A stretch of DNA of 64,000 bases. It comes from Bacteroidota bacterium. Its GTDB lineage: Bacteria; Bacteroidota; Bacteroidia; Bacteroidales; FEN-979. A program made the translations under genes and the position numbers. Positions 3,296-33,764 of this stretch are shown here, piece by piece. Each line of letters opens with the position of its first letter. Position 1 is the stretch's first letter. The notes beneath the pieces were generated by a model. The model worked only from the letters and a program-made list of their open reading frames with translations, searched no databases and was not told the origin of the DNA. The stretch covers positions 17,736 through 81,735 of the forward strand of contig JAPLDO010000077.1 in NCBI GenBank assembly GCA_026391715.1, read 5' to 3'.

Positions 3296-3892
3296 ATGCT
3301 CCTCCTCCTCAACAACCACGACTCCTTCACCTGGAACCTTGCCGAACTTTTGCGAACCATTGGGAATGTCAGCTTTGAGATTGTTTCTTCAGAAGATTTC
3401 AATAGCGCAATGATGCCAAAGTTCGACAGGATTATCTTTTCGCCTGGTCCCGGACTTCCGCAGGAGCGCCCGGCAATGTTCACTATTTTAAAAGAGATAG
3501 AAGAGCGGGAATCCAGACGCGAAAAAGTTCCTTCTGTTTTGGGAGTCTGCCTTGGCATGCAAGCTATCGCCATCCATTTTGGAGCAAAACTGATCAACCT
3601 GCCATCGGTCATACATGGTCAATCACGGAAACTGCGAATCCTTCGACCTGACAATCCTCTTTTCAACGAAATTCCCGATGGATGTGAAGTTGGTCTTTAT
3701 CATTCCTGGGCAGTTGATCCTGCCTCCATTCCCGCTTGCCTCGAAACGCTCGCCATCAGCCCTGATGAAACCATCATGGCTCTTTGCCACAAAACCATCC
3801 CTGTAACCGGAGTACAATTTCACCCAGAATCAATTATGACTCCAACTGGGAAAAAAATGATCGAAAACTGGCTTGGGGAAGGGAGTTGGTAA
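3296..3892 (+). CDS. pabA: aminodeoxychorismate/anthranilate synthase component II (class I glutamine amidotransferase)
   Basis: N-terminus LLLLNNHDSFTWNL, nucleophile elbow GVCLGMQ, and QFHPES near the C-terminus. Divergent from pabB/pabC. Confidence 0.85.
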   Translation: MLLLLNNHDSFTWNLAELLRTIGNVSFEIVSSEDFNSAMMPKFDRIIFSPGPGLPQERPAMFTILKEIEERESRREKVPSVLGVCLGMQAIAIHFGAKLINLPSVIHGQSRKLRILRPDNPLFNEIPDGCEVGLYHSWAVDPASIPACLETLAISPDETIMALCHKTIPVTGVQFHPESIMTPTGKKMIENWLGEGSW

Positions 3893-27618: not shown

Positions 27619-30276
27619 TCATATTGCCTGATCAATTGCCGCCGAAACCTTCAAAAAATACCGGTTCAGCAACCGTTCCTGGGGTTCAGGGATTTCAGCC
27701 AGTTCATCAAAAGGCATAAGTTTGTCTTTCCTTTCCAGGTCGGTCCTATCATATTCGCTCTGGTAGGTTTTTATAAATTGGATGCTTTTTAAATCTTCAT
27801 TGTTCTGAAAATTACATTCGCGCAACAAGACCGGGATGATCGTATAACCTTCCGATTTCCGACGTTCCAGCATCTGTTTGAACTCGTCGCCCATGCAATA
27901 TTTCGATCCAAAAAACGACGGACTGACCAGCAATATACCGATATTCGACTCCTTCAATGCCTTCTGAATTTTGTCGTTCCAGTCGCCGCCAACAGGGATT
28001 TCGACATCCGACCAAACCGTGCCGAATTTGTTTTTCGCGCTTGCGAGATGAACCTTCAGTCGTTGCTCGAAGATTTTTCTTAAATACCGGTCGGCTGTTG
28101 AATAGGAGATGAAAATCTTATTGGCGGACATTTCCTTGCCCTGAAAAAATTCATCATTGGCATAAATTTCATGAAGCATTTTATCTATCGCGACCCGTTT
28201 TTTTCCGATTTTGCAGAAGATGGTTTTCTCCCCGGCTTCGATGTTCGATTTGATATAATCGAGGTCATAAAAATTTGGCGTATCGCTTTTGTCGCATGTC
28301 TCACAATTGCACACTATCATTTCATTGCACACGATATATGGGAACGTGTTTGAATGGATGTGCTCAACCTCCTTGCGGATGGTCCGTAAAAACGCCCGGC
28401 GTTTCTCGGCAATACTGCCGGCTACTTTGATTCCAATGTATTTCAACCCTTCGCTGGTTGTTTCCTGTTGCAGTACTTCGGCCGTGCAGGGCTCTTTTTT
28501 GTCGTCATCCTGAAATATGGCGCCGGTCAGCCAAACTTTTTCACCCAGAATTCTATCATGGAGCCGCACGATCAGCCTGCTCATTAATCCTTCGGGCATG
28601 AATGGATACTGAAACCTGAAATGCAACTTGTCGCCTTTTCCCAAATCATAATCCGTCCTTGAATCGGGCAGTTTCATCGGGACAACATAATTGCCGGGTC
28701 TATATGGCAACTCGTAACAAATATCAAATTTATCCTTCAACATCAAATTGAGCAAAAACACACACTCGGCATTCTTATAAGGTTGCCTGTGTTTTTCGGT
28801 ACATTGTTTAGATAGCCAGTGGCTGTATAGCGCATGCAGGTTAAACTCACCATTTTTGTCAATGACCAGGGTGTCGCTTAAAACATCGTAAATTGCCTGT
28901 GTTATCCAGTTTGGATCCAGAAAAACGGTGTTCTGAAGATTGGCGTCGTTAAAATTCAGGGCGATTCCTATTTTGTGATAATATTCCAGCAGAAAATCAA
29001 TATCGCTGGTATCTTCCAACCCACATTTCCTGGAGATTTCCTCAAAATCATCCCGCAAAATATATTTCTGATTGCGTAAAATGTCAATTTCCTCCCGGAT
29101 TTTTTTCCAGGGTTTGATGATCGTCTGTCCAACAATGGGAAGCGACGATAAACAGGAAGCAATTTTCTCCTCAAAAGCATCCCATGTACGATTCAGGTTG
29201 GCAAAGTCAATTTCACCACAGTTGAAGATGTTCAACTCCCTGAAAATGTCCCTGAAACCCTTTTCATCGAACGGAATCACCGTGTCGCTTTTTTTGTGGC
29301 GGTTGAGCAGGACGAGGACCGGGCTTTTCTTTCCCAATAAATTGATGATGTGGAACCAATAGCCGTAACGCGTTTTTCCGCTTCTTCCGTCGGTAATCAG
29401 GACATATACCGAATCGTCGGTCAAAAAATACTGATGAAGCATATACTGGATATCCTGGCCACCGAAATCCCAGATGTGCGCTTTTATCTTTGGCAACGAT
29501 TTTACCGGATTTTCGAACTCCCGGTTTGGCCTTACTTCGATTCCCAACGTGGAGGGTTGTTCGGGTTGCGGCACTTTAAAGCCCCTGTCGAACAGCAATT
29601 CCATCAATGTGGTTTTTCCGGCGCCGGGTTCGCCCACGATCAGAATCTTTGCCTCATACGCTTTTTCGGTGGAATATTTTAACGCCTGCTTAAACCATTC
29701 AACGGTTTTCGCCTTGCCCCCATCCACAATCTCTTTGGGCGGCGCGGTGATCGTTTCATTTTTCTCAAAATTGAAATCAAACCCCTCCTTCGCAAAAAAC
29801 CCAGCCAGTTCCGACAAATCAACGAGGTTGTTTTGATGGAGGTACAAATGCTTTAGCGACGGAAAATCGCTCACGGGTAAGTCAATCCGGGAGATTGCGT
29901 TACGGCTCAGATCAATAAGATCGAGTTTCGGAAAGGCGCCTTCAAAACGGATCTCTTCCATCCCATTCCCAAATAAAAAGAGTGTTTGAAGGTTGGGGCA
30001 ATTTTTAACGACCATCTTCTTTATCCCACAGTTGTTGGCGTTCAGATAGCGCAAGCGGGGTTGAGGGGTTTCAAAAACCAGTTCGGTCAAATCAGGATCT
30101 TGTTGTTTTTCGTCTTTTTTTTCGTCCTCTTTGTCATTGCCAAGATAGACGAATTCATAACCGGTGGTGGTTTCGTCGAAGACAAAACGTTTGTTTTTGA
30201 TCTTCGATTTTATTGATGGGATTGCCAACTCGAGGGTTGTTAAGTCGGCGTGGGTGTAATCGGTAGATGTTGTCAT
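27619..30276 (-). CDS. ROCO-type protein with C-terminal TIR domain (LRR - Roc GTPase - COR - TIR)
   Basis: LRRs (NCPNLQTLFLFGNGM, LIDLSRNAISRIDL, LKHLYLHQNNLVDL). Roc P-loop GEPGAGKTTL, WDFGGQ and the NRHKK NKxD-like motif. A long COR-like middle region. The last roughly 130 aa are TIR-like (KIFISYSTADR...ILLVSPSFFGSKYCMGDEF...IIPVLL). Confidence 0.8.
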   Translation of the reverse strand: MTTSTDYTHADLTTLELAIPSIKSKIKNKRFVFDETTTGYEFVYLGNDKEDEKKDEKQQDPDLTELVFETPQPRLRYLNANNCGIKKMVVKNCPNLQTLFLFGNGMEEIRFEGAFPKLDLIDLSRNAISRIDLPVSDFPSLKHLYLHQNNLVDLSELAGFFAKEGFDFNFEKNETITAPPKEIVDGGKAKTVEWFKQALKYSTEKAYEAKILIVGEPGAGKTTLMELLFDRGFKVPQPEQPSTLGIEVRPNREFENPVKSLPKIKAHIWDFGGQDIQYMLHQYFLTDDSVYVLITDGRSGKTRYGYWFHIINLLGKKSPVLVLLNRHKKSDTVIPFDEKGFRDIFRELNIFNCGEIDFANLNRTWDAFEEKIASCLSSLPIVGQTIIKPWKKIREEIDILRNQKYILRDDFEEISRKCGLEDTSDIDFLLEYYHKIGIALNFNDANLQNTVFLDPNWITQAIYDVLSDTLVIDKNGEFNLHALYSHWLSKQCTEKHRQPYKNAECVFLLNLMLKDKFDICYELPYRPGNYVVPMKLPDSRTDYDLGKGDKLHFRFQYPFMPEGLMSRLIVRLHDRILGEKVWLTGAIFQDDDKKEPCTAEVLQQETTSEGLKYIGIKVAGSIAEKRRAFLRTIRKEVEHIHSNTFPYIVCNEMIVCNCETCDKSDTPNFYDLDYIKSNIEAGEKTIFCKIGKKRVAIDKMLHEIYANDEFFQGKEMSANKIFISYSTADRYLRKIFEQRLKVHLASAKNKFGTVWSDVEIPVGGDWNDKIQKALKESNIGILLVSPSFFGSKYCMGDEFKQMLERRKSEGYTIIPVLLRECNFQNNEDLKSIQFIKTYQSEYDRTDLERKDKLMPFDELAEIPEPQERLLNRYFLKVSAAIDQAI

Positions 30277-30348
30277 GAAAAATATTTAAACTGCATATCT
30301 GCTAAAAACAAGTTGATTTTTCTTGTGCTTATATCATTTGGTTCCATA

Positions 30349-30507
30349 TTATGTCATCCCTTCGGGATTCTGTTCCAACTCAATCTTTTCAATCTATTAT
30401 CATGTCATCCCTTCGGGATTTGTAGGATTTTTTTGTAAACCCCGAAGGGGTGACATGATTATAGAACGGATTGGAAAACCCGATATTGAACCCCGAAGGG
30501 GTGATAT
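30349..30507. repeat. nested inverted array of four 18-nt hairpin motifs (2 forward atgtcatcccttcgggat, 2 reverse accccgaaggggtgaca/t)
   Basis: Copies at 30349-30369, 30402-30420, 30439-30456 and 30490-30507. Each contains a ccc-ttcg-ggg or cccc-gaag-gggg mini-hairpin. The inner pair and the outer pair are mutually complementary. Confidence 0.8.
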
Positions 30508-30742
30508 TATTCTTCATACCATTAATCGCTATATGTGCACTTCTCGGCAACGTGACCTAACCAAATTTAAAATCCAGTACTTTTCATACCTCAAAAAAAC
30601 AGGGTTTTCGCCAAAACTATCCGGCTTTGGGTACTAACCCTGCGCTTAATCGACGCTGCACGAGCGCCATATTCGCCGCCGTTAATATGGCGGGCAGGGA
30701 CAATAATCTGTTCGATGGAAGCTATCCGGCTATTCCTTTGAG

Positions 30743-30875
30743 CTACGGGACGAAGGCGAGGCGGAAGCCGAGATTGTTGTTGCGGTTGTCGGGGGTGTTG
30801 TTGTTGCGGTTGCCCCGTCGGCAGTTGAACGCATTGTTGATCCACGAGCCGCCGCGATTCACGCGGTTCGAACCC
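30743..30875 (-). repeat. DGR template repeat (TR)
   Basis: 133 nt aligns without gaps to 32536-32668. All 17 mismatches are T on the + strand, i.e. A on the coding strand, in this copy. The in-frame reading is Asn-rich (AAC/AAT codons). Confidence 0.92.
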
Positions 30876-30879
30876 ACGA

Positions 30880-31875
30880 TTATTGCCCTATATTGCAAAG
30901 AACTTTTTTACGAAAATACAAACTATCGGCATGAAAAACAAAAGCGTTTAAAGCCAATGCATGATGTTGAAATTCGGATTGGGACCATATTCCGGTTTCT
31001 AATAAGCCGGTAAATTCTTTCATTTTATGTTGGTAGCGTTTCCTGCTTCGCGCTGCAAGGTGTGTTTTTTCGGGAAAAATCAAATATCCCACAAAAGTCA
31101 ACCCTTTGGAACACCGGTTTAAATCGGCTGTTTTTAAACACAACCCGAGTTGTTCTTCCAAAAATATTGTGATTTTTTTGCCTGTTTCTTTCAAAATATC
31201 TTTGTTGTTGTGCCAGATAATAAAATCATCCGTATACCGGATATAGGCAGGCGAATGTAATTGGCTTGTAACATAATGGTCGAGCAATCCCAAATAATGG
31301 TTGGCAAAATACTGGCTTGTAAGGTTTCCAATTGGCACGCCTTGTCCGGTTTTGGTATGATAGGAATTGATTATTCTGTCGAAAATACCGAGCAGAACTT
31401 CATCTTTGAATTTCCGCTCCAGCATTTTTTGAAGAATACAATGTGAAATGCTGTCAAAATATTTGCGAACATCAAATTTAAAATACCACTGGTATTCTTT
31501 TTGAAACCGCTTGGCGCGTTCCAGAGCTTTATAGGTTCCCTTTCCAATCCGGGTGGCATAACTGTCGAATATCTGATATTTCTCGAAACATGGATGACAA
31601 ACATTCATCAAAGCATGATGCAGAACCCGTTCATTAAAATCGGCCGCGCAAATCTGCCTTTCCTTTGGGTCGTAAATGGTAAAATAATGGTAGTTGCCAA
31701 CGGAAACATTTCCGGTTATTATCTGGCGTTGAAGAATGGTTAAATTTTCATCCAGGTTTTTACTATATTCTACCACCGTAGGCTGATGTTCTTTGCCTTT
31801 TTTTGCTTTGAAATATGCCAGGTACAGATTATCAAAACAGGATATCTGTGGGATCAGGTTTCCCGCTCGTTTCAT
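30880..31875 (-). CDS. DGR reverse transcriptase
   Basis: 331 aa. RT motif 4 IGNLTSQYFAN (the DGR-typical SQ signature) and catalytic YTDD. Small, with no maturase or endonuclease domains. TR is immediately downstream. Confidence 0.92.
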   Translation of the reverse strand: MKRAGNLIPQISCFDNLYLAYFKAKKGKEHQPTVVEYSKNLDENLTILQRQIITGNVSVGNYHYFTIYDPKERQICAADFNERVLHHALMNVCHPCFEKYQIFDSYATRIGKGTYKALERAKRFQKEYQWYFKFDVRKYFDSISHCILQKMLERKFKDEVLLGIFDRIINSYHTKTGQGVPIGNLTSQYFANHYLGLLDHYVTSQLHSPAYIRYTDDFIIWHNNKDILKETGKKITIFLEEQLGLCLKTADLNRCSKGLTFVGYLIFPEKTHLAARSRKRYQHKMKEFTGLLETGIWSQSEFQHHALALNAFVFHADSLYFRKKVLCNIGQ

Positions 31876-32314
31876 TCATTTCAGCGTTAAATATTTTTAT
31901 AATTGTCGCTCCGTATTTATCTGTTTTTTTATCGCCGACGCCTTTAATGCTTTTTAGTTTGTTTATGGTTAGTTCCGGGAGTTTCGCCATTTCGGCAAGT
32001 TCGGCGTCGGTAAAAACAACATACGCCGATACGCTATCGTCAAAAGCAATTTTCTTTCGTATCTCGCGTAGCTTTGAAAACCTGGCAAAAACTTCGGGTT
32101 CAAGTACTTTCATATAATCAATTCTTTCTTTTGTTGCATATTCAGGTATATTGGTTAAAATATAGCTGATATAAATGCACCAATAAACGCCATTAGGAGT
32201 TTGAATCAATTGTTTCTCGATCTCTACAACTTTGTTTGACCGTAAAAAAGTGTTCAGTTCGTCGTTGTAATCATTTACCGAAGTAATCGGAATAGTAAAA
32301 AACCTGATTTGCAT
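31832..32314 (-). CDS. DGR accessory protein with C-terminal HRDC-like domain
   Basis: 160 aa. The C-terminal half (VFTDAELAEMAKLPELTINKLKSIKGVGDKKTDKYG) is HRDC/helix-hairpin-helix-like. It lies between target and RT and overlaps the RT start by 44 nt. Confidence 0.7.
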   Translation of the reverse strand: MQIRFFTIPITSVNDYNDELNTFLRSNKVVEIEKQLIQTPNGVYWCIYISYILTNIPEYATKERIDYMKVLEPEVFARFSKLREIRKKIAFDDSVSAYVVFTDAELAEMAKLPELTINKLKSIKGVGDKKTDKYGATIIKIFNAEMNETSGKPDPTDILF

Positions 32315-32535
32315 AAAGCATCAAAATTATTTGTGTAAAATATCAATTGAAAAATTCTCTCTGTGTATTCTTGTGCAACTCGGTGAAAAAAAATTTTCCG
32401 CCTACGTCGGGTTTTTAGTTCGTAAACCCTAAAAAAACACGCTTCACTCGGCTACCGCCTCGTTTCGCTTTGTTTTTTTTGGATTTACTCACCGCCCCTG
32501 TGCTCAAAGGAATAGCCGAATAGCATGCCACCGAA

Positions 32536-32668
32536 CTACGGGACGAAGGCGAGGCGGAAGCCGAGAGAGTCGTCGCGGTTGCCGGGGGTGCTGTTGATGC
32601 GGTCGCCCCGACGGCAGTAGAACGCATCGTAGAGCCACGAGCCGCCGCGAACCACGCGGCGCGAACCC
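32536..32668 (-). repeat. DGR variable repeat (VR) at the 3' end of the target gene
   Basis: See the TR entry. VR encodes GGSWLYDAFYCRRGDRINSTPGNRDDSLGFRLAFVP; TR encodes GGSWINNAFNCRRGNRNNNTPDNRNNNLGFRLAFVP. Confidence 0.92.
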
Positions 32669-33345
32669 GAATCTGCGCCAACCGGGTTTTCCGTCTTTCT
32701 TTTGTCGTATTTGCCATACCAGTCCCAGCGCCATTCCCAAACGTTCCCGCTCATGTCGTACAAGCCAAACGCATTCGGGAATTTTAACCCCACGGGTTTG
32801 GTTTCATATTTATTGTTTTTGTCGTACCAGCCAACGAGGTCGAGGTGGGAACTGCCGGCGTATTGGTTTTTTTTCAAATTCGACGGGTTTTGAAAACCCG
32901 TCGGATTTGAAGCATACTCCCCTTCCGCCTCGGTTGGCAGGCGAAAACCGGAAGCGGCAGGGTTAAGTTTAAACTTGTCAAGGTCCTTTTCCGACAGGTT
33001 ATCTAATTTTAAAAGATCCGAACCCCTGACCAACCCCAAACGTTCTAATTCACGGTTCAGGATTCCGCAAAACTTAACGGAATCGTACCACGAAACCTGT
33101 TCAACCGGATGTTGGTCGCCTTTAAAATTTGACGGATCGTTGCCTGCAACCTCTTTATAAAACTCCTGCGTTACCGGGAATTGCGCCATGCAAAAGGAGT
33201 TTACTTTTACTGTTTGGCCATCTTCACGTTGAAATGAGCCGCCGGGGATTGATACGAGGTTAACCGTTAACTGTTTGTCGGGTGACTGATTTTGAAAATT
33301 CAATTGATACCCGGTATCGGTTTGCTTTAGTTCTATTGGTTTCAT
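32536..33345 (-). CDS. DGR variable target protein, FGE-sulfatase / C-type-lectin fold, no signal peptide
   Basis: 269 aa with FGE-type motifs (HPVEQVSWYD, GLYDMSGNVWEW, RVVRGGSW). The C-terminal 44 codons are the VR. The N-terminus is hydrophilic. Confidence 0.9.
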   Translation of the reverse strand: MKPIELKQTDTGYQLNFQNQSPDKQLTVNLVSIPGGSFQREDGQTVKVNSFCMAQFPVTQEFYKEVAGNDPSNFKGDQHPVEQVSWYDSVKFCGILNRELERLGLVRGSDLLKLDNLSEKDLDKFKLNPAASGFRLPTEAEGEYASNPTGFQNPSNLKKNQYAGSSHLDLVGWYDKNNKYETKPVGLKFPNAFGLYDMSGNVWEWRWDWYGKYDKRKTENPVGADSGSRRVVRGGSWLYDAFYCRRGDRINSTPGNRDDSLGFRLAFVP

Positions 33346-33440: not shown

Positions 33441-33523
33441 TTCCAGGTTCAAGGTTCCAGGTTCAAGGTTCAAGGTTGCAGGTTCAAGGTTCAAGGTTCC
33501 AAATTCCAGGTTCCAGGTTCCAG
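33441..33523. repeat. heptanucleotide tandem repeat (TTC[A/C]AGG) about 12 units, with 3 inverted units at 33584-33604
   Basis: Counted directly. It lies 96-180 nt upstream of the DGR target start codon, in a divergent intergenic region. Confidence 0.9.
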
Positions 33524-33764
33524 CGAAAAGAGATCGAGTCAAGATTGAACAAGACGTGAAAGCAAGGATTTGAAATTTGAGACCTGGAATTTGGAATTTG
33601 GAACTTGTAATCAAAATGTCTTAATTTTGAACGTTTGTATTATAACATATAACATATTATGACCTATAACCCAAAAACCAACGATGAACTCATTCAAGAG
33701 GTTGAAAGACCCTGTTCTTTATCGAGTTTTCAAGAAACGAGTCCAACCAAACTGAATACCCAAT

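Follow-up and report, generated by a model that had tools for sequence, protein, structure and literature searches.

Complementary flanks of template and target repeats in an HRDC-type diversity-generating retroelement from Bacteroidota: a probable signal for target marking and docking

Of the steps of mutagenic retrohoming, the one by which the cDNA of a diversity-generating retroelement (DGR) locates its target and takes its place is understood least, and the cis elements known to take part in it come from one phage. The question is raised by a stretch of 64,000 nucleotides (nt) from a Bacteroidota bacterium (GenBank assembly GCA_026391715.1, contig JAPLDO010000077.1, positions 17,736 to 81,735), called here the window, which holds a complete, chromosomal DGR of the HRDC type. 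The element consists of a target gene, an accessory HRDC gene, a reverse transcriptase (RT) gene and a template repeat (TR), whose counterpart, the variable repeat (VR), forms the end of the target gene (Table 1). According to standard DGR biology, the RT would copy the TR transcript and misincorporate opposite adenines, and the cDNA would overwrite the final 133 nt of the target, a process whose footprint the window displays. What tells the target from the template is the point at issue. The best explanation, which is considered probable on the sequence comparisons reported below, is that a spacer of the template RNA directly 3' of TR, named X, pairs with a segment directly 3' of VR, named X', and thereby marks the target and docks on it.

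The original prediction described TR and VR as a gapless pair that differs only at template adenines. Exact pairwise alignment bears this out: the two repeats are 133 nt each, without indels, and differ at 17 positions, every one of which is a T of the plus strand in TR (an A of the coding strand), with zero differences at other bases. In the coding sense, VR carries G (8), T (6) or C (3) in place of the template A. The template adenines, estimated beforehand at roughly thirty, number 31 on the coding strand, and the chance that 17 random positions would all hit them is 2.2e-13. They are distributed as 15, 15 and 1 over codon positions 1, 2 and 3, with 10 AAC and 3 AAT codons, and the peptides quoted earlier for TR and VR agree with the translations of the open reading frames (ORFs). 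Similarity between the repeats breaks off sharply at both ends, and a scan of the window with T as a wildcard found no additional VR.

The class of the element is equally clear. RTs of the DGR lineage carry an I/LGxxxSQ motif in domain 4, and both RT motifs named beforehand, IGNLTSQ and YTDD, were found in the RT ORF. The accessory gene, which in DGRs can be Avd, HRDC, MSL or CH1, is of the HRDC type by its Pfam match. The best solved relative of the RT is that of Bordetella phage BPP-1 (PDB 8ub7, E 3.9e-41), with 33% identity to Brt over 289 amino acids (aa), IGxLTSQ included; by search scores, group II intron (1.3e-13) and retron-type RTs (4.8e-13) are far weaker matches, contrary to what would have refuted the prediction. 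The NCBIfam group II RT model reaches 96 bits against a cut-off of 300, and neither NCBIfam nor PADLOC offers a DGR-specific RT model, all their matches being generic or far under cut-off. The prediction of a complete DGR thus stands, with every element present, the ORFs intact and the substitutions strictly adenine-specific; as a DGR, the element is an ordinary new member.

The classical cis elements of retrohoming are the initiation of mutagenic homing sequences (IMH in VR, IMH* in TR) and a GC hairpin whose structure, not sequence, matters (PMC3240598). GC-rich inverted repeats with a 7-10 bp stem and a GRNA tetraloop, 4-34 bp past VR, occur in 34% of DGRs (PMC5758913), and the hairpin is missing in two thirds of the catalogued elements. 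No such hairpin follows VR in the window. The identical, G/C-rich stop-codon end of the repeats, taken at first for an IMH-like sequence, does exist (31 nt, 68% G+C vs 44% for the window); it is no classical IMH, since the TR and VR ends match through the stop codon and the difference between IMH and IMH* is absent. Where IMH equals IMH*, discrimination between donor and recipient is unexplained (PMC5758913), and recognition "would have to extend downstream" (PMC5758913; also PMC6602519, PMC3521204). As the two ends are alike here, the flanks must tell donor from recipient.

These flanks are complementary. In the window, X and X' constitute an inverted repeat of 32 nt, 16 nt of which form a perfect core, adjoining both TR and VR. 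RNAduplex pairs nt 1-33 of X with nt 1-33 of the VR flank at -49.5 kcal/mol, and the self-fold of X' amounts to only -5.5 kcal/mol.

Relatives were gathered by a scan of one genome per species, which yielded 80 loci with RT identities of 48-77% from Bacteroidota (Saprospiraceae, Bacteroidales, Cytophagia, Chitinophagales), Chlorobiota, KSB1, Caldithrix and other groups. An HRDC homologue is found in 80/81 loci, and self-comparison revealed adenine-specific TR/VR pairs in 65 of the 80. In those 65, VR almost always lies about 1.75 kb upstream and TR follows the RT directly. The order target-HRDC-RT-TR had been noted as a less common layout; the order is confirmed, and its rarity may hold for catalogues but not for this clade, where it is the norm. 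In the published survey, HRDC genes occur in 14/372 catalogued DGRs, and these 14 show 11 different gene orders (PMC5758913). A search with the HRDC protein returned the same clade only (40-83% identity) and did not reach distant HRDC-type DGRs, and no viral relatives of the RT were found in IMG/VR.

The related loci provided 77 unique TR-VR pairs with 33 distinct X sequence types, and complementarity between X and X' is clear in 67 of the 77. The ungapped complementarity score has a median of 15 for cognate and 6 for non-cognate pairs (Mann-Whitney p 5e-45), and a score of at least 11 is attained by 86% of the former vs 3.4% of the latter. In gapped alignment, a median of 26/31 positions is identical, X is covered from nt 1 to about 31, and in 71% of pairs no more than 5 nt separate the duplex from the VR boundary. 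Median duplex energies are -39.4 kcal/mol for cognate and -19.8 for non-cognate pairs, the self-folds of X and X' being about -6 each. A formal count over 44 sequences gave 30 base pairs, with 88.5% of cells paired vs 33-47% when the partners were slid against each other. Both sides are altered by compensatory changes at 21 of these pairs (190 cells vs 68 +/- 8 in shuffles), and 0 of 500 shuffles equalled any of the observed pairing measures.

The non-Watson-Crick pairs in the interior of the duplex indicate which strands are involved. When all mismatches are penalised equally, G.T/T.G pairs number 31 vs 5 for A.C/C.A (p 1.3e-5); therefore, two sense strands appear to pair, namely X in the TR transcript and the sense strand of X'. 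X could have either single-stranded DNA or the target mRNA as its partner. Extra single bases recur at certain positions, mostly on the X' strand (82 T and 25 C in the 77 pairs), with T opposite G or T. Such bases may limit recombination or identity between the inverted copies at the DNA level and largely spare the pairing of RNA.

The rule was also tried on loci outside the sample. Six metagenomic loci were picked through HRDC homologues after the hypothesis had been formed, four of which had a TR/VR pair, and pairing was found in 4/4, with scores of 37, 38, 77 and 46; the shuffle maxima were 30 and 38 for the two loci re-examined with longer flanks. As a negative control, the same pipeline was run on 80 Avd-type loci related to BPP-1. 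Their 55 TR-VR pairs show no flank complementarity, with scores of 16 for cognate, 16 for non-cognate and 15 for shuffled pairs. A match between the spacer and VR flank of BPP-1 itself had a borderline score, which this clade-wide control showed to be background. No account of complementarity between TR and VR flanks was found in the open-access literature searched, and that of this DGR clade, which departs from the canonical scheme of cis elements, appears to be undescribed so far.

If X' is a tag of the target, it should accompany every target, and loci with several targets are therefore informative. Ten loci possess 2-3 VRs with distinct flanks and a single HRDC/RT/TR cassette; in three others (L009, L038 and L062), the extra VRs have nearly or wholly identical flanks. 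Every VR is provided with X' in all multi-target loci except the most divergent one, L076. Remote targets are located kilobases away, some of them downstream of TR, and in most of them X' is still complementary to the single X. Between paralogous and primary targets, the coding DNA upstream of VR is 57-88% identical, the invariant VR end 90-100% in 10/11 comparisons, X' 88-94% in 8/11 (range 71-94%), and the next 80 nt 72-98% in 10/11 (58% in L015). Past +115, identity drops to mostly 50-65%, about the level of unrelated sequence. X' and the module of about 115 nt are mostly kept beyond the identity of the coding DNA and are therefore usually constrained at every target, which argues for a role of this module at the target site and not as a purely intramolecular RNA scaffold.

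The remainder of the module includes a long hairpin. The first structure beyond X' in the window is an A/T-rich 18-bp stem at VR +48 to +114 with a 31-nt loop. In L057, the distal hairpin stems of the two targets differ by compensatory changes, and X' is kept. Many loci contain, at VR +67 to +89 and usually in the loop of this hairpin, a segment complementary to the local VR/TR end; loop and VR end read GGGACGA and TCGTCCC in many of them, CGAGGCGGTAGCCGAG and CTCGGCTTCCGCCTCG in the window and L001, and other variants elsewhere. A DNA fold of the sense strand of the window pairs this segment, Z', with its VR partner, Z, so that X' lies in the loop between them (z -1.68). By analogy with what has been proposed for the inverted repeat of BPP-1 (PMC12875486), pairing between Z and Z' could hold the site open and present X'. 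As a further observation, the sequence of the hairpin loop varies between loci in step with the local VR end.

On the template side, the 3' flank of TR is conserved for about 130 nt in related loci. The interval given originally for the element began at 30721 and omits most of this conserved RNA, which reaches to about 30596. Within X, a cis hairpin was modelled with 9 pairs (G0:C33, U2:A31, C3:G30, A4:U29 and an inner hairpin), with 91% of cells paired vs 13-46% when slid and compensatory changes at 3-4 pairs. This cis fold brings the invariant adenosines of a GAACAG motif next to the final nucleotide of TR. In 48/61 loci, the motif begins between +28 and +30, and we infer that its adenosines are candidate priming nucleotides, by analogy with spacer A56 of BPP-1. 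Further downstream, the stem of the hairpin at 30676-30693 covaries, as judged by eye from alignments. RNAalifold on the raw MAFFT alignment of the TR flank recovered the small hairpin alone, because the variable loops misalign, and Rfam gave nothing relevant, either at the gathering threshold over the whole window or with E up to 1 over 30300-32700. The hairpins at 30611-30630 and 30720-30734 display the same GCCGGAUAG loop, and a GGAU loop motif is kept at both sites in relatives; this twin motif could be bound by a protein.

A sequence of events can be proposed from these elements. In BPP-1, a short helix between TR and spacer places A56, whose 2'-OH primes the cDNA at TR G117, and the cDNA remains covalently joined to the RNA (PMC6182149). 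The lagging-strand template is regarded as the strand to which the BPP-1 cDNA anneals (PMC12875486), and RNA upstream of TR is required for controlled cDNA synthesis (PMC6182149, PMC12875486). In the window element, X would first fold back in the free transcript, and the GAACAG adenosines beside the last TR nucleotide would prime the cDNA, like A56. X would then open and, where the target's sense strand is single-stranded, pair with X' on it. Since the X:X' duplex stops exactly where VR begins, the cDNA, still linked to the RNA, would come to lie collinear with VR, like an RNA-primed Okazaki fragment. The TR would be spared as a target because it carries X, not X'; donor and recipient would thus be distinguished by X vs X' and not by a difference between IMH and IMH*. 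Through the complementarity of its loop to the end of VR, the long hairpin past X' would help to hold the site open or accessible, and a cofactor role in annealing or nucleic-acid binding is plausible for the HRDC protein. A fuller version is put forward more tentatively, as a possibility of somewhat less than even standing: the spacer would stay on the mutagenised cDNA as a guide and pair with the 33-nt tag, so that the hybrid anneals as one strand to the exposed sense strand. If so, the choice of target would be programmed by sequence and transferable by moving the tag.

Several facts weigh against the explanation by target marking and docking. The sequences used for covariation are related, so that the cell counts exceed the number of independent events. 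Pairing is not clear in about 13% of pairs (10/77), in part because the repeat ends are misplaced, the others being from the most divergent loci, and RNAduplex in long windows scored these 10 pairs no better than shuffles. The one-sided extra T on the X' strand is left unaccounted for by the model, and the TR flank, folded as a single sequence, gives an unremarkable result (z -0.43). Searches of the metagenome collection for population evidence of activity, with an exact 22-mer of X' and an A-to-N wildcard pattern of VR, gave no match. Finally, sequence alone cannot separate RNA:DNA from RNA:RNA pairing, and as all genes are co-oriented, X' and X could share one transcript.

This last point leads to an alternative that is unlikely but has several facts in its favour. 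In an ordinary HRDC-type DGR, X' and X, together with Z' and Z, might pair in cis on one operon RNA as a priming scaffold, target recognition being a separate matter. Upstream RNA and spacer do cooperate in BPP-1 (PMC6182149, PMC12875486), and the G.U bias suits RNA:RNA pairing. A single operon RNA would also agree with the VR-to-HRDC gap of only about 170 nt, with a Bacteroidota-type promoter motif (TAnnTTTG) upstream of HRDC in only 5/74 loci, and a scan for sigma-70 promoters between X' and X remained at background level. However, a scaffold would need only one X', whereas remote targets mostly keep X' and the hairpin module, and it gives no reason for the duplex to end exactly at the VR boundary.

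It is improbable that X and X' are two inverted copies of one double-stranded DNA site without base pairing between them, either bound by a sequence-specific protein (HRDC, RT or one of the host) that brings TR and VR together or used for recombination or inversion. At the DNA level they are indeed inverted repeats around the HRDC-RT-TR cassette, and the conserved GGAU core, which occurs twice in the TR flank, could be a recognition motif. Yet the 33 X types are always matched by their X', with which a binding protein would have to co-evolve each time; the asymmetry of 31 G.T/T.G vs 5 A.C/C.A fits strand-specific pairing and not a duplex site, and the indels every 8-10 nt would disrupt such a site.

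The chance that the window holds a decayed or inactive relic, whose 17 differences are old, is slight. Population-level VR variation was not retrieved from the metagenome scans, but the ORFs are intact, the catalytic YTDD is present, the 133 nt contain zero non-A differences or indels, and the non-coding TR flank is conserved across phyla. The exact HRDC protein was found on one Logan contig only (L162, 1784 nt), where the RT is identical too. This contig begins inside the invariant 3' end of VR and stops inside TR, as assemblers are expected to break at a repeat or hypervariable region, and it is uninformative on VR variation.

Scarcely any credit is given to a by-product, that is, similar palindromic terminators or hairpins after both repeats or a chance match: X does form a small hairpin alone and BPP-1 gave a borderline match at chance level, but the direct, non-inverted similarity between X and the VR flank is noise (median 14 vs 15 for non-cognate pairs), which excludes shared palindromic terminators, the self-folds of about -6 are far from the -39 kcal/mol of the duplex, and chance is excluded by cognate specificity, covariation and replication in the hold-out loci.

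The proposed docking of X on X' can be set against known systems. The element resembles the BPP-1 DGR (mtd-avd-TR-brt) in its homologous RT, the A-to-N signature, a VR at the 3' end of a target with a C-type-lectin fold and the unmutagenised G/C-rich 3' end. It also shares a structured spacer 3' of TR, in which a fold-back helix adjoins conserved adenosine(s) (PMC6182149), and cis elements needed or conserved within tens of nt 3' of VR (PMC3240598). It differs in having HRDC instead of Avd, TR after the RT, and IMH equal to IMH*, and the GC-rich 8-bp hairpin of BPP-1 (4-nt loop, 4 nt past VR) is replaced by the 33-nt X' and a long hairpin with a large loop. As in HRDC-type DGRs of "Architecture C", represented by the Treponema denticola DGR (PMC5758913, PMC6602519), the HRDC gene adjoins the RT gene, the targets are FGE-sulfatase/C-type-lectin proteins, and some loci have several targets per cassette. 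Unlike the surveyed HRDC DGRs with their 11 orders among 14 elements, the present clade has one order in 65 loci. With retrons, whose msr/msd RNA primes from a 2'-OH where a helix of inverted repeats begins, the element would share template-primed reverse transcription from the foot of a fold-back helix and a branched RNA-cDNA; its RT is far closer to DGR RTs, TR/VR and a target gene are present, and no msd-like unit was seen. The RNA of mobile group II introns recognises the DNA target by pairing of exon-binding and intron-binding sites (EBS-IBS) beside the site of the cDNA, and this pairing covaries between elements. The concept of RNA-guided pairing with the target next to the place of cDNA installation is thus common to both, but the window element has no ribozyme, reverse splicing or insertion, and its 33-nt helix lies outside the copied segment.

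If the rule holds, HRDC-type DGRs would possess a mechanism for target discrimination and cDNA docking, with a possible role for the HRDC protein, and DGR mutagenesis could be retargeted by a short tag, which is relevant to DGR-based directed-evolution tools. If it fails, the window contains one more well-formed DGR.

Table 1. Elements of the DGR in the window, in the order of the minus strand; X and X' are given in coding sense.
Feature	Position	Strand	Remarks
Target gene, FGE-sulfatase/C-type-lectin-fold protein, 269 aa	32536..33345	-	PF03781 1.1e-40, residues 30-266
VR	32536..32668	-	Final 133 nt of target gene, stop codon TAG included
X', 33 nt directly 3' of VR	32503..32535	-	TTCGGTGGCATGCTATTCGGCTATTCCTTTGAG; imperfect reverse complement of X
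Long hairpin past X'	32422..32488	-	Inverted repeats, arms 32422-32439 and 32471-32488
Z', in apical loop of long hairpin	32447-32462	-	Complementary to VR 32550-32565 and TR 30757-30772 (invariant 3' part)
Accessory gene, 160 aa	31832..32314	-	C-terminal HRDC domain, PF00570 6.6e-16
DGR-type RT, 331 aa	30880..31875	-	IGNLTSQ and YTDD; Pfam RVT_1 7.6e-14
TR	30743..30875	-	Starts 4 nt past RT stop codon
X, first 33 nt 3' of TR	30710..30742	-	CTCAAAGGAATAGCCGGATAGCTTCCATCGAAC; predicted trans helix with X', also cis hairpin with CGGAUA loop
GAACAG motif (TGAACAG), 3' end of X	30708..30713	-	Invariant A at TR+31 and +32 (30712, 30711)
Remaining conserved RNA	30596..30709	-	GUCCC, hairpin 30676-30693, CAAAUA, GGUAG-like motif, second hairpin 30611-30630 (GCCGGAUAG loop)

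Some further features of the cassette and its surroundings were recorded. An N-terminal signal peptide is not evident by eye in the target protein. The HRDC and RT frames share 44 nt (31832-31875), and the same overlap is present in the gene calls of L162, L163, L165, L167 and L168, which suggests translational coupling.

Downstream of TR, at a distance of 467 nt and on the same strand, an LRR-Roc-COR-TIR protein of 885 aa is encoded (27619-30276, minus strand), the TIR domain of which is ThsB-like (4e-17). A Roc-COR-like gene follows TR in 10/52 related loci with enough downstream sequence; the loci listed for this neighbourhood are L001, L002, L003, L046, L055, L057, L065, L078, L079 and L165-L168. 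Other loci of the clade are flanked by genes for STAND/AAA ATPases, an EAD7 domain, a kinase, PP2C and FHA proteins. Such neighbours suggest a joint function of the diversified lectin-fold protein with signalling or conflict systems of the NTPase/TIR kind. The interval that separates the DGR RNA from the Roc-COR-TIR gene contains, at 30347-30511, an imperfect palindrome of 29 nt in two tandem copies (TATYATGTCATCCCTTCGGGATT ... AACCCCGAAGGGGTGAYATKATT), similar to repetitive extragenic palindromic (REP) or miniature repeats, for which Rfam returned only sub-threshold matches to miRNA-like hairpins (30385-30478).

In the BPP-1 clade (BPP-1 itself, L081, 2830-2844 vs 3443-3460, and several of the loci L084-L142), the spacer near the priming A56 (..AGGTGGTCAG) shows complementarity to the VR IMH in its 3' part (TGACCACCT). 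Judged by eye, the spacer fits this sequence better than the TR IMH*, its known partner, and the match may be a by-product of the known helix between TR and spacer.

Upstream of the target gene, 100-260 nt from its start, a tandem array of 7-nt/21-nt units (TTCCAGG/TTCAAGG, about 12 copies) with an inverted partial copy occupies 33441-33523 and 33571-33604, and this array may be regulatory.

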